Positions 17,486-20,896 of a DNA stretch of 21,803 bases are shown here, one piece after another. Source of the DNA: Verrucomicrobiota bacterium (lineage in GTDB: Bacteria; Verrucomicrobiota; Verrucomicrobiia; Limisphaerales; CANJSG01); NCBI GenBank assembly GCA_038209745.1, contig JBBQXJ010000080.1, forward strand, positions 1 through 21,803, read 5' to 3'. The notes below the pieces were generated by a model. It did no database searches. It was not told the DNA's origin and saw nothing but the letters and a program-made list of their open reading frames with translations. Positions within the stretch are counted from its first letter, which is position 1; the number at the start of each line of letters is the position of its first letter. The translations under genes and the position numbers were made by a program.

Positions 17486-18067
17486 ATGACGACCGCCAAC
17501 AAGATCACCGTTCTCCGCATCCTGCTCATCCCGTTCTTCGTGACGGAGATGATCTACTACGCGCGCACGGGGGAAGAGCTGCATCGGCTGCTGGCCATCG
17601 TCAGCTTCGCCGTGGCGGCGATCAGCGACGGGATCGATGGCTACATCGCCCGGCGCTACAACCAGAAGAGCGAGCTGGGCGCGATCCTCGATCCGCTCGC
17701 GGACAAGCTTCTGCTGGTCTCCTCCATCGTCATCCTGAGCCTCGACAACAACGGCCGCCTTCCGCAGATCCCGTTCTGGGCCACGGCGGCCATCCTCAGC
17801 CGCGACATCCTCGTCACCATCGGTGTCGGCCTCGTGCACCACATCGTCGGCGACGTGAAGGTGCGGCCCCGGATCCTGGGCAAGCTGGGGACGGTCCTGC
17901 AGATGGTCATGGTCGTATGGGGCGTGCTGAAGTGGGACGAGATCTGGTTCGGACGTTGGTGCGCGGCGGCGGCGGTGGTCACGGTGGTGTCGGGGCTGCT
18001 CTACGTCTGGGACGGCATGAACCAGCTCGGCAAAAGCCCGAAGAGTTCGGCCACGACGGACCAGTAG
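17486..18067 (+). CDS. CDP-alcohol phosphatidyltransferase (PgsA/cardiolipin synthase-like)
   Basis: MTTANKITVLRILLIP and the signature DGIDGYIARRYNQKSELGAILDPLADK; several TM segments; 193 aa from the ATG at 17486. Confidence 0.93.
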   Translation: MTTANKITVLRILLIPFFVTEMIYYARTGEELHRLLAIVSFAVAAISDGIDGYIARRYNQKSELGAILDPLADKLLLVSSIVILSLDNNGRLPQIPFWATAAILSRDILVTIGVGLVHHIVGDVKVRPRILGKLGTVLQMVMVVWGVLKWDEIWFGRWCAAAAVVTVVSGLLYVWDGMNQLGKSPKSSATTDQ

Positions 18068-18119
18068 CATTCCCGGCAGTTGCGCGCGGCCCGGGGCTGC
18101 GTAGTTTTCGCCGCCATCT

Positions 18120-18614
18120 ATGCCGACCAAGACCACCAAACCCGCCCCGAAAGCCGCCAATCCTTTGGCCGAGGGAACCGTCGCCCCTGATTTCACCGCG
18201 CCGACCAATGGCGGCGGAACCGTTTCGCTTTCCGGACTGAAGGGGAAGCACGTCGTCCTCTTCTTCTACCCCAAGGACAACACGCCCGGCTGCACGAAGG
18301 AGGCCTGCTCGTTCCGCGATTCGTTCGCCGCGTTGAAGAAGAAGGGCGTCGTCGTGCTGGGAGTCAGCGTCGATTCCGTGAAGTCGCACGACAAGTTCGT
18401 GGAGAAGTTCGACCTGCCCTTCACCTTGGTCTCGGACGAGGACCACAAGATCGTCGAGGCCTACGGAGTCTGGGGCGAGAAGCTGTTCATGGGCCGACGT
18501 TTCATGGGCACGAACCGCATGACCTTCCTCATCGGACCGGACGGGAAGATCCGCAAGGTCTGGCCCAAGGTGAAACCGGAGGAACACGTCGCCGAAGTGC
18601 TGGCCGCTCTGTGA
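18120..18614 (+). CDS. bcp: Thioredoxin-dependent peroxiredoxin, BCP/PrxQ type
   Basis: [20 protein letters not shown] (peroxidatic and resolving Cys), [13 protein letters not shown] and YGVWGEK. Confidence 0.95.
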
Positions 18615-18618
18615 ACGT

Positions 18619-18668
18619 CCCTCTCCCCGTCGAATGGGAGAGAGTGCCCCGCAGGCCGGTTGGGGGCA
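18619..18668. repeat. Tandem hairpins, REP-like or terminator-like, after bcp
   Basis: CTCTCCC-cgtcgaat-GGGAGAG followed by TGCCCC-gcaggccggttg-GGGGCA. Confidence 0.45.
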
Positions 18669-18738
18669 TTGTTTCGCCCCTTGCACCCGGGGCAATGCGG
18701 TGCAGTTTGGTCACTCCGAGAAACAGACCCATTCAAAC

Positions 18739-19188
18739 ATGAACCTATCCACTCCCGACCTGACCCAGTTTCCGCCCCGCAGCCCCCGCGTCCGTCTCGG
18801 CGGCCTCGTGATCCTCGCCCGTTGCCTCGATAAATGCCGCGCCTCGCTTGCGGGCAAGCACGGTGAATACCACTACGCCTGTCCGATGGACATGCGGTTG
18901 CTCGAGTTCCTCGGGATCGATGCCGACAAGCTCAAGGCCGAAGTCGCCTCGGGCAAGGGCGACGGCGAAGTCGTCGAATGGATCATGGCCCACGCGAAGA
19001 CCAAGCGCACCGGCTCCGAGATCATCGACTGGTCCACCTGGCAGGAGAACGCGCCTCCCGGCAGCGTTGATTCCCGCGACTTTTTCCACACCCTGCACCA
19101 GCAGGCCGCGCCGAAGCGGACGGACATCTTCAACTGGTTCGACCTGCTCGACGTGGACGACTTCGCCAGCTTCGGGGGCAAGCCCTGA
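18739..19188 (+). CDS. DUF5069-like protein
   Basis: PDLTQFPPRSPRVRLGGLVILARCLDKCRASLAGKHGEYHYACPMD...FLGID and C-terminal WFDLLDVDD; 149 aa from the ATG at 18739. Confidence 0.85.
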   Translation: MNLSTPDLTQFPPRSPRVRLGGLVILARCLDKCRASLAGKHGEYHYACPMDMRLLEFLGIDADKLKAEVASGKGDGEVVEWIMAHAKTKRTGSEIIDWSTWQENAPPGSVDSRDFFHTLHQQAAPKRTDIFNWFDLLDVDDFASFGGKP

Positions 19189-19250: not shown

Positions 19251-19349
19251 CATGGGCAGGGCGCCCGCGCCCCGCCGCCTCCCCGGAAAACAATACCGCC
19301 CATGCTCCATTGGGGAACATGGGCGGTTCGGCGCTTTGCCGGGCGCCCC

Positions 19350-19964
19350 TCAGGTCGCCATGTGCTGCACGGGATCGCTCCACGGGCTCGTGCCCCTGCT
19401 TCCGCCGATGGCCCGGACCTGGAGCTGATAGGTCGAGCCCGGCACCAGCCCCTCTACCTCCAGCCGGCGCGACTTGGTGCCGATGCTGCCGGACACCCAA
19501 CCGCCCGTGCCATTCATCTTGCGCACCTCGTAGGCCCGCGCGTTCTCCACCGGCGAGACCCTCAGCGCCAGCCGCGTCGTCTCGATGTTCTCGATCTGCA
19601 GGACCACCGGCGTATCCAGCGGCCCCGAGGGCGACCGGCCCGACACCGCGTCGAATCCGCTGGAGAGCAGCGTGGCCAGATCGTTCTTCATCGCCAGTTG
19701 CACGTAGTAGGCCTCCGTGCGCACCAGCGAATCCAGCTTCTGCCGCTCGATGTTCTTCTGCGCCGTCGCCGCCATGCCGCCGAGGGCGCTCATGGCCATG
19801 GCGTCGTCGAACTTCGTCAACTGCGCCTGGAGATCCGCCAGAGGCACGTCGGGGGCGGGAAACGCGGCATTGCCGGTGAGCCCGGCGATGATCCGGCCGG
19901 TGAATTCCGCCAAAGCCGAATCGGACCAATAGGCGAATCGGAGGGAGACACGATATTTTGTCAT
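19350..19964 (-). CDS. Protein with N-terminal helical domain and C-terminal fibronectin type III domain; no signal peptide
   Basis: 204 aa from MTKYRVSL. FN3 pattern P..L......L.V..V.NARAYEV...W......LEVEGLVPGSTYQLQVRAIG...SPWS. An A/C-rich leader lies upstream of the ATG. Confidence 0.85.
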   Translation of the reverse strand: MTKYRVSLRFAYWSDSALAEFTGRIIAGLTGNAAFPAPDVPLADLQAQLTKFDDAMAMSALGGMAATAQKNIERQKLDSLVRTEAYYVQLAMKNDLATLLSSGFDAVSGRSPSGPLDTPVVLQIENIETTRLALRVSPVENARAYEVRKMNGTGGWVSGSIGTKSRRLEVEGLVPGSTYQLQVRAIGGSRGTSPWSDPVQHMAT

Positions 19965-20059
19965 GGAATGATCTACTTGTGTTGATGTTTCAGTTTCAGG
20001 AGGCCTTTGGCACAACTCCCCGCGCTTGCGGGGCTAGAACCTCCTCTTCACCCCGGCCC

Positions 20060-20728
20060 TCAGCAGCACCGGTGCCAACGTCCTTTTTTTGGGCGGATCA
20101 GCCCCGGTCTTGGAACGCCTTTCCTGCAGCGCAACCCCCTGATTACAGGAGAAACCGTCGCCTCCATCTCCGCGCTGATCCCTTCCCAGCCCGCCAAACC
20201 ATGAAACCATTTCATGCCCATGAGCCGATCAATGAATTGTGGGCATCCAAAATTGCCGGGCAAACAATGCCGACCTACCCGGCAATGTCCGTCAGCCAGT
20301 CCTCCGCCGACCCGATCACAAAAACGCCAAACCAAACCAAGAAAGCGACGAACTGAACCAAGAAAACCATGGAAGAGATCACGAAAGTCGCTTACCAGAC
20401 CACGAAAACGACAAATGAGATCACAGAAACGACAAATGAGATCACAGAAATGGCAACTGAGATCACAGAAACGACAAATGAGATCACAGAAATGACAAAT
20501 GAGATCACAGAAATGACAAATGAGATCACATAAACGACATCTGAGATCACAGAAACGACAACTGAGATCACATAAATCTCGGAAGTAGTCTAAAAAACCT
20601 CGGACTTGATCAAAGAAACGCCGATCCAGACCTGGAAAATCCCATTCCCGATCAAAAACCCGGCAGAACCGACCCGGGAAAAGCCATCCCGGCCCCCGTT
20701 GCGGCAAACGGGAGTTCGCCGCAAACAT
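20060..20728 (-). CDS. Possible Cys-rich heptad-repeat protein encoded by the 21-bp array
   Basis: 222-aa frame open across the whole array, with heptads F-[CRLF]-[DG]-L-[IVSF]-[CR]-[RHG]. Several unit-to-unit changes are synonymous in this frame. No clear RBS, and the flanking parts look non-protein-like. Confidence 0.35.
   Translation of the reverse strand: MFAANSRLPQRGPGWLFPGRFCRVFDREWDFPGLDRRFFDQVRGFLDYFRDLCDLSCRFCDLRCRLCDLICHFCDLICHFCDLICRFCDLSCHFCDLICRFCDLICRFRGLVSDFRDLFHGFLGSVRRFLGLVWRFCDRVGGGLADGHCRVGRHCLPGNFGCPQFIDRLMGMKWFHGLAGWEGISAEMEATVSPVIRGLRCRKGVPRPGLIRPKKGRWHRCC
20312..20689. repeat. 21-bp-period tandem array (18 units, 8 near-identical core units)
   Basis: Core consensus GAGATCACAGAAA[C/T]GACAAAT at 20417, 20438, 20459, 20480, 20501, 20522, 20543 and 20564 (the last conserved only in its 5' part). 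Degenerate in-register units occur at 20312-20416 and 20585-20689, with no indels. Confidence 0.95.
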
Positions 20729-20744
20729 TTCGAAGGAGTGCCGG

Positions 20745-20896
20745 AGGTAAGGCGACGGCCCCCGCCGAGCCGCCTGGGGATGAACTCGCTTCTTGAATGC
20801 GACACGGGCAACTCCGAAACGCCCCGCCGTCGCCAGAGCCGCTGCCCCGTCGGCAGCGGATCCAACGGCGGCTCGGCGGGAGCCAGCACCTTACCT
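20745..20896. repeat. Inverted-repeat element copy 3
   Basis: AGGTAAGGCGACGGCCCCCGCCGAGCCGCC (20745-20774) and GGCGGCTCGGCGGGAGCCAGCACCTTACCT (20867-20896) are inverted at 26/30. Inner motif GGCAACTCCG...GTCGCCAGAG as in copies 1 and 2. Confidence 0.8.

Follow-up and report, generated by a model that had tools for sequence, protein, structure and literature searches.

Sigma-54 promoters have upstream activating sequences (UASs), exemplified by the NtrC sites of glnAp2 and the three NorR sites of norV. These are found tens to hundreds of base pairs upstream of the -24/-12 promoter, and the placement of several sites on one helical face aids oligomerization of the AAA+ activator that every sigma-54 promoter requires. 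Known bacterial enhancers comprise two or three activator sites, and those of sigma-54 promoters are usually dyad-symmetric and carry a motif common to the regulon. Plasmid and phage iterons (P1, R6K, pPS10), which are bound by Rep initiators, are tandem direct repeats of ~17–22 bp lying about two helical turns apart. In centromere-like arrays (parC/ParR and the 7-bp heptads of omega protein), phased repeats coated by an adaptor protein lie upstream of the regulated operon, and in contingency promoters units of 1–8 bp (7-bp repeats before hmw1A, TAAA repeats before nadA) change spacing or phase. Here we examine a 21,803-nt stretch of DNA from a Verrucomicrobiota bacterium (contig JBBQXJ010000080.1; the whole stretch is referred to as the window), in which an array of 21-bp tandem repeats lies upstream of a gene for a 204-aa protein with a helical bundle and a fibronectin type III (FN3) domain. 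Array and gene are conserved as a unit, and their recurrent pairing, with a different repeat each time, suggests an upstream control element of a kind not yet described.

That array and gene belong together had been proposed in a first-pass annotation of this DNA, along with a search for periodicity near homologues of the FN3 protein. We carried out that search as a sliding autocorrelation over the 1 kb upstream of each gene, scoring a locus as positive when the best lag was 21, 42 or 63 at an identity of at least 0.55. The proposal is borne out: an upstream array is found in 41 of 53 loci overall. In the first set, which counts only loci with at least 300 nt upstream, 25/36 loci have an array upstream and 0/38 have one in the downstream flank; random 1-kb pieces of this genome are positive in 6 of 1000 cases. 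The same-genus relatives that are 30% identical (seven loci, from sister genomes), together with one metagenome locus, are positive without exception (8/8), and three further genomes contribute eight of nine loci, including all seven tested paralogues of one genome. From the second set, L057 was removed because it duplicates L012, and two other loci, L047 and L052, because less than 300 nt is available upstream. The pairing thus extends to proteins with only 30% identity and to different orders of the phylum. Unit sequences are unrelated among loci, also among paralogues within one genome (seven elsewhere and three here), and the higher-order periods of the upstream arrays are always multiples of 21. 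It is the 21-bp period that is retained while the unit sequence is replaced between loci.

No neighbouring protein besides the FN3 gene product is conserved across the homologous loci. A leader motif shared across loci was sought with blastn-short, which detects similarity only among close relatives, and a word common to the arrays (tccgtc...) occurs in 5–6 of 23 of them, barely above shuffles. Searching six same-genus genomes, which are drafts 78–93% complete, with the leader and array DNA gave no match (0/6). A full-text search of the literature, within the portion of it that such a search reaches, returned no paper describing arrays of this kind.

Tandem Repeats Finder (TRF) reports positions 20406–20576 of the window as a single array of period 21 (8.1 copies, 90% matches, no indels, score 272), and the eight core units match the consensus at 18–21 of 21 positions when aligned in register. 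Beyond the core the repeat continues in decayed form on both sides. The five units of the gene-side flank have a mean of 11.6/21 consensus matches at offset 0 and the six of the far-side flank a mean of 10.5/21; the other 20 phase offsets score 4.2–9.4, so that offset 0 is the maximum on each side. Taken alone, the two flanks have lag-21 self-identities of 0.50 and 0.48, compared with 0.23–0.39 for the other lags in the 18–24 range, and 121 consensus matches are observed in the flanks against a composition-based expectation of 70.6. In total, ~19 units lie in register and without indels over 20301–20699, one more than the 18 described in the first-pass annotation, whose account of a homogeneous core with indel-free decay on both sides is otherwise unchanged. 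Its distance of ~350 bp to the gene also agrees with our measurements, which give 337 bp from the start codon to the first decayed unit and 442 bp to the core. The features of the locus are collected in Table 1.

Table 1. Array, promoter and gene features of the FN3 locus (window positions)
Feature	Position	Strand	Basis or remark
Terminator-like hairpin just 3' of FN3 gene	19295–19327	-	14-pair stem then T-rich tail
204-aa protein: N-terminal helical bundle (~1–105) and one FN3 domain (~120–202)	19350–19964	-	Open reading frame, Pfam, AlphaFold
Sigma-54-type promoter (-24 GG / -12 GC)	20062–20077	-	113 nt before start codon
Unique 'leader' between promoter and array	20142–20300		Duplicated with array elsewhere; sharp left border at 20142
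Five decayed 21-bp units	20301–20405		In register with core; kept in C37 copy
Eight homogenized 21-bp units (core)	20406–20573		TRF and in-register print
Six decayed 21-bp units, gene-distal	20574–20699		Missing from C37 copy, present in related strain

GC content is 0.41–0.47 across the array and 0.60–0.69 in the surrounding DNA. The plus strand had been described as A/C-rich, which is correct for the flanks (A 0.38, C 0.32) and not for the core (A 0.49, C 0.19, G 0.18, T 0.13); by these counts the whole array region is A-rich and A/C-richness is confined to the flanks. Decay is uneven along the unit. Among the 11 decayed units, positions 1, 2, 7, 10, 14, 15 and 17 are retained in 8–11 units, and positions 6, 9, 11, 12 and 21 in just 0–3. 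The 12-mers of the unit are almost confined to the window array and to its copy on contig C37 of the same genome (see below), with three stray matches on C74 and C111; the unit is therefore not a regulon-wide site. The units follow one another head-to-tail with no spacers between them, which is not the arrangement of a CRISPR array.

Two dispersed elements adjoin the far end of the array. A ~35-nt hairpin-forming motif at its edge (20694–20728) has copies of 87–93% identity on at least seven other contigs (C5, C50, C16, C98, C64, C11 and C71), and its 15-nt centre, read from the printed sequence, is also present beyond the array of the C26 paralogue. We considered this hairpin as a distal activator site and rejected it on a by-eye comparison, in which the other copies do not stand at the contigs or places of the strict promoter motif introduced below. 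Directly beyond, a ~150-bp element at 20745–20896 has 37-nt inverted arms that are 81% complementary, and dozens of copies of 68–85% identity occur on other contigs of the genome, which marks it as a dispersed repeat resembling repetitive extragenic palindromes or miniature inverted-repeat transposable elements.

Between the array and the gene is a sigma-54-type promoter; the first-pass annotation had missed both this promoter and a second, gene-less copy of leader and array. The strict motif used to search for such promoters (TGGCAY, six bases, TGCW) follows the sigma-54 -24/-12 consensus. It occurs at only 18 sites on both strands of the whole 4.58-Mb genome, and three of these stand 113–121 nt before the three FN3 paralogues; other sites precede flagellar rod, FliW and pseudopilin-like genes. 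Over 39 homologous loci (215 kb) the motif has 13 forward and no reverse matches, and 12 of the 13 lie 80–121 nt before the gene, in 12 of the 38 loci with at least 150 nt upstream. In the 30%-identical subfamily, a block of GGCACG, four bases and NGGCT or CCGCT is invariant in seven of seven loci, ~170–185 nt before the ATG. At 20062–20077 the -24 and -12 elements stand at the fixed spacing, and the genome encodes both RpoN (PF04552, 194 bits, contig C83) and AAA+ activators, with 12 full genes for bacterial enhancer-binding proteins (bEBPs; PF00158, 207–254 bits). The order of the locus is array, 224–329 bp, -24/-12 promoter, a ~85-nt leader, FN3 gene and terminator. In the other promoter-bearing loci the array ends 30–341 bp upstream of the -24 element, so that here as in the window the distances are those of a UAS. 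In a separate observation, the loci of the 30%-identical subfamily (L054–L056, L060–L062 and L064) share a ~160-nt conserved leader that runs from the promoter block to the ATG and has stem-like segments; it might be a regulatory 5' untranslated region.

The first-pass annotation had also asked for a comparison of unit number, and variation is found: eight units in the window, five in the C37 copy and 12 in a related strain, the last being read from a 28-residue gap that equals four units. The C37 copy (G000:C37:139–488) repeats the leader and array (20142–20576) at 95% identity over 350 bp, with neither FN3 gene nor promoter beside it. The related strain joins the window's far flank to a C37-type near context, and the junction with the alternative context is also visible in two other samples, whose contigs have a loose end at 20142. 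Contigs from four DNA runs break within the array, none spanning it, and therefore yield no unit counts; a look-up of RNA runs for 19350–20750 listed none that contain it. Between the homologous loci L018 and L019, a 209-nt indel falls within the array, and the array of the C26 paralogue has a gene-less twin on C45. A third gene-less 21-bp array, of 13 units, lies at C91:16789–17068, ~480 bp from an open reading frame (ORF; 17546–18448) that ends like an RHS-repeat core. Period 21 is the commonest among the TRF rows of this genome (57 rows) and period 7 the fifth commonest (23 rows); at least 12 contigs carry short tandem arrays with a 7-bp period, many in number and built from one related unit (for example C17:52192–52239 and C35:5865–5916).

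The protein encoded beside the array has the composition first proposed for it, a ~105-aa helical region and a single FN3 domain. Its sole Pfam match is fn3 (residues 120–200, 30.1 bits against a cut-off of 25), and its AlphaFold (AF2) model, with a predicted local distance difference test (pLDDT) score of 89.2, has a helical N-domain followed by a C-terminal FN3 domain. The latter aligns with the FN3 structure of integrin beta4 with a Z-score of 13.3 (root-mean-square deviation 1.6, 88 aligned residues); both the gathering score and the fold thus place it among fibronectin type III domains. As read from sequence and model, the protein is without a signal peptide. The N-domain folded alone (pLDDT 92.6) is predicted to be a generic helical bundle, whose best match in the PDB (Z 8.8, to FAT/talin-like bundles) is below the tool's noise level for helical proteins, and no viral structure in BFVD matches it at E <= 0.001. 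According to the ESM Atlas it also occurs as a stand-alone protein in other phyla, in clusters that are all unnamed. Its mean net charge over 30 homologues is -2.0. The suggestion that the FN3 protein binds its own array is not favoured by an N-domain that is acidic on average. Neither the FN3 protein nor the array ORFs have a match in PADLOC or NCBIfam, and PHROGs yields only FN3-type tail-fibre matches.

The family is small and sparse. Among 5.8 billion proteins there are 58 homologues, mostly of 204 aa and all annotated 'hypothetical', with taxonomic labels such as Limisphaerales, Verrucomicrobiales and Chthoniobacterales. Of 301 genomes sampled from the phylum, 4 carry the family (E <= 1e-10), and a metagenome scan with the FN3 protein returned four loci only, none close. 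The gene is present in three copies in this genome and in nine in another. Three short fragments in this genome match parts of the FN3-family profile (C139:3520–3708, C97:15677–15865 and C44:27794–28042; E 4e-09, 4e-09 and 8e-07, respectively) and may be remnants of lost copies. The Verrucomicrobiales-type loci (L015–L019, L029, L030, L035 and L048) encode an FN3 protein with a conserved ~37-aa N-terminal extension that is rich in W-D-G, L-R-W-D and L-T-W and has a coding substitution pattern (mismatch phases 2, 11 and 4). Tandem repeats of 7 bp (also 10 and 16 bp) lie 12–190 nt downstream of the FN3 homologues in L014, L017, L060 and L064, and the C26 paralogue has tandem repeats ~560 nt downstream of the gene (C26:25601–25658). 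In the window, the next gene, for a DUF5069 protein (18634–19188, plus strand), is convergent to the FN3 gene, which together with the terminator-like hairpin indicates that the FN3 gene stands alone. The remaining neighbours are AhpC/TSA (bcp), CDP-alcohol phosphatidyltransferase and UvrA-like genes, a chromosomal setting.

The explanation that we prefer, at somewhat less than an even chance of being right, is that the array is a non-coding, helically phased and length-variable upstream regulatory element for the sigma-54-type promoter of the FN3 gene. One unit per two helical turns would present the same feature repeatedly on one face of the DNA. An oligomerizing protein, for which an AAA+ activator or a nucleoid protein is a candidate, could then coat the array co-operatively, or the DNA could take up a coherent bend, and the coated or bent array would set activation of the downstream promoter. 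Gain or loss of whole units would change dose or distance while keeping helical phase. The first-pass annotation offered a binding platform or a length-variable regulator; the variation in length is now observed, and a regulatory or binding role is plausible only. As to how such an element might work, the fact that unit sequences are private speaks against an ordinary activator site shared by a regulon. It is possible, though we advance this part with much less assurance, that the private array of each gene copy acts through its period and tandem state with no motif shared by a regulon, either as a sequence-independent architectural enhancer or with a partner that co-evolves with each array in cis, much as iterons and Rep do, but here in the control of a chromosomal gene. 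If so, either mechanism would constitute an undescribed kind of bacterial cis-regulatory element.

Several results weigh against the array as an enhancer of a sigma-54 promoter. In 5 of 25 arrays the perfect inverted repeats of the unit reach significance; the best stem of the window unit is 3 bp (P = 0.47), so that this unit lacks the dyad of a bEBP enhancer. A more tolerant dyad test, applied to the best period-21 TRF row per locus (a few of which are located downstream of the gene), reaches significance in 1 of 30 units. No linkage to a gene for a bEBP or other regulator is seen across loci, the unit 12-mers occur essentially nowhere else in the genome, and a sequence-specific trans activator would have to be supplied for each paralogue, given their unrelated units. 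The sigma-54 motif is not recognized at the Verrucomicrobiales-type loci, which do carry arrays, and is recognized in 0/9 loci of the three further genomes; the array is therefore a more constant companion of the gene than is a recognizable promoter motif. The gene-less arrays of this genome (C37, C45 and C91) have no strict promoter motif alongside.

One rival takes the array for the heptad-repeat region of a gene encoding a small protein, as the first-pass annotation had it when it suggested a rapidly evolving coiled-coil partner. The main candidate is a 222-aa ORF at 20060–20728 on the minus strand, that of the FN3 gene, and a plus-strand frame is a lesser one. The 222-aa ORF is open through all 19 units, with the heptad F-C-D-L-I-C-R, and it is also called in the related strain, exactly four heptads longer. 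The retention of decayed-unit positions by codon position 1, 2 and 3 (41, 48 and 32 of 77) follows the order expected of coding DNA, and a different family of 21-bp arrays in this genome (C54/C127) does appear to be coding. However, the plus strand is T-poor (0.11–0.13), which makes minus-strand stops rare by composition alone; the C37 copy has two stop codons in the frame; and the 10 within-array substitutions, which fall on five unit positions, are all non-synonymous in every open frame (codons read by hand). Neither do the 10 differences between the window and C37 copies favour any frame. Orthologous flanks lack codon periodicity: comparison of L018 with L019 gives mismatch phases of 16, 12 and 10 and of 8, 5 and 7 in the array flanks, against 11, 44 and 11 in the coding sequence. 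In related loci a single ORF reads the same repeat in two frames. The end of the 222-aa ORF overlaps the promoter, its only homologue among 5.8 billion proteins is that of the near-identical strain, and no match at the family cut-off is found in Pfam, NCBIfam, PHROG or PADLOC. We regard a coding role as improbable, and the array, judged by its sequence, is most likely non-coding.

The other rivals accept a non-coding array and differ in what it does. It could be sequence-independent architectural DNA in which only the 21-bp period matters, through a coherent bend or loop, nucleoid-protein wrapping or a phase-keeping spacer, with no specific binder. The period is indeed conserved while units are unrelated even among the seven paralogues of one genome and the three here, dyads are not general, unit 12-mers are almost confined to two array copies and higher-order periods are always multiples of 21; moreover, sigma-54 activation needs DNA looping, and intrinsic bends can substitute for IHF. 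On the other hand, AA/TT phasing at 10.5 bp shows only mild enrichment (P <= 0.05 in 4 of 25 arrays, with a median P of 0.30; window P = 0.62), the period could be conserved simply by descent, each new unit being copied from an old one, and the retention of particular positions in decayed units is more suggestive of contacts with a specific partner. We consider this explanation unlikely, if worth keeping in view. An array acting as RNA, either as a repeat-bearing leader of the FN3 mRNA or as a divergent non-coding RNA with many binding sites for one protein, is suggested by L014, where the array ends just 55 nt before the start codon and must therefore lie in or under the transcript start region, and by the 4 of 25 arrays that fold far better than shuffled units (z of -5.6, -4.3, -2.6 and -2.4, all below -2). 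Yet the mean folding z over the 25 arrays is -0.85 and that of the window is -0.37, Rfam 15 yields nothing at the gathering score (the best 19.9–23.1 bits against cut-offs of 44–80, not above chance) and the window promoter sits between array and gene, directed away from the array, which leaves RNA as the least probable of the explanations considered. Finally, a selfish or neutral satellite, kept by slippage and recombination and merely travelling with the gene, would fit the gene-less copies on C37, C45 and C91, the exchange of flanks between copies in the related strain and the homogenized cores with decayed edges. It fits poorly with an array whose side and approximate distance relative to one gene family are maintained among proteins only 30% identical and in different orders of the phylum, with the position-specific decay of old units, and with the tendency of useless DNA to be deleted from bacterial genomes, and we consider it very improbable. 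Dyad symmetry, RNA structure and A-tract phasing are not general features of the arrays. A CsrB-like sponge RNA, considered because several arrays carry ACGGA-like words, was rejected, as the window unit has no GGA and folding is not general.

The second 21-bp array family of this genome is found at C54:32157–32561, C127:174–550, C14:69946–70094 and C44:139–189 (L068 and L069), in all cases at contig ends. These arrays read as A-P-V-K-A-N-N heptads, with common variants at three third-codon positions, and are followed by a conserved hydrophobic tail in which differences are only synonymous, both as read from the printed units. There is a weak alanine-zipper lipoprotein match below the cut-off (25.7 against 43 bits), and the family looks protein-coding from its sequence. 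At C44:224–1084, 35 bp after the contig-end array, is an ORF that by its sequence resembles a tyrosine recombinase.

How does the FN3-linked array compare with the systems outlined at the start? Like a sigma-54 UAS, it lies upstream of a -24/-12-type promoter and within looping distance of it. Unlike the UAS, it consists of 8–19 tandem direct repeats, mostly without dyads, whose units are private to each gene copy, and it has neither a cognate activator nearby nor a motif reused across a regulon. If it does control the sigma-54 promoter, it would represent a novel mode of construction and tuning for a bacterial enhancer. With iterons it shares repeats that adjoin one gene and a repeat sequence that differs between families. 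The neighbourhood of the array, in contrast, is chromosomal and without a Rep, DnaA-box or partition gene, so that neither an initiator gene nor a replicon context is present at the window, and the protein beside the array is a helical bundle with FN3, not a winged helix, with an N-domain that is on average acidic. Phased short repeats upstream of a gene recall the centromere-like arrays, but no ParM, ParA, TubZ, ribbon-helix-helix or helix-turn-helix gene is linked across the FN3 loci.

What sets this locus apart is the association, across a phylum, of one gene family with a long, satellite-like array in which the period is kept, the sequence turns over and the unit number shifts. Such an array would mark an uncharacterized family of helical bundle and FN3 proteins, present in up to nine copies per genome, as tightly and individually regulated. 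As in contingency promoters, the number of upstream repeats varies between strains and could tune expression; unlike theirs, a unit of 21 bp preserves helical phase, and, if the array controls the promoter, it would provide a natural system in which to study the effects of repeat number and helical phase on promoter output.

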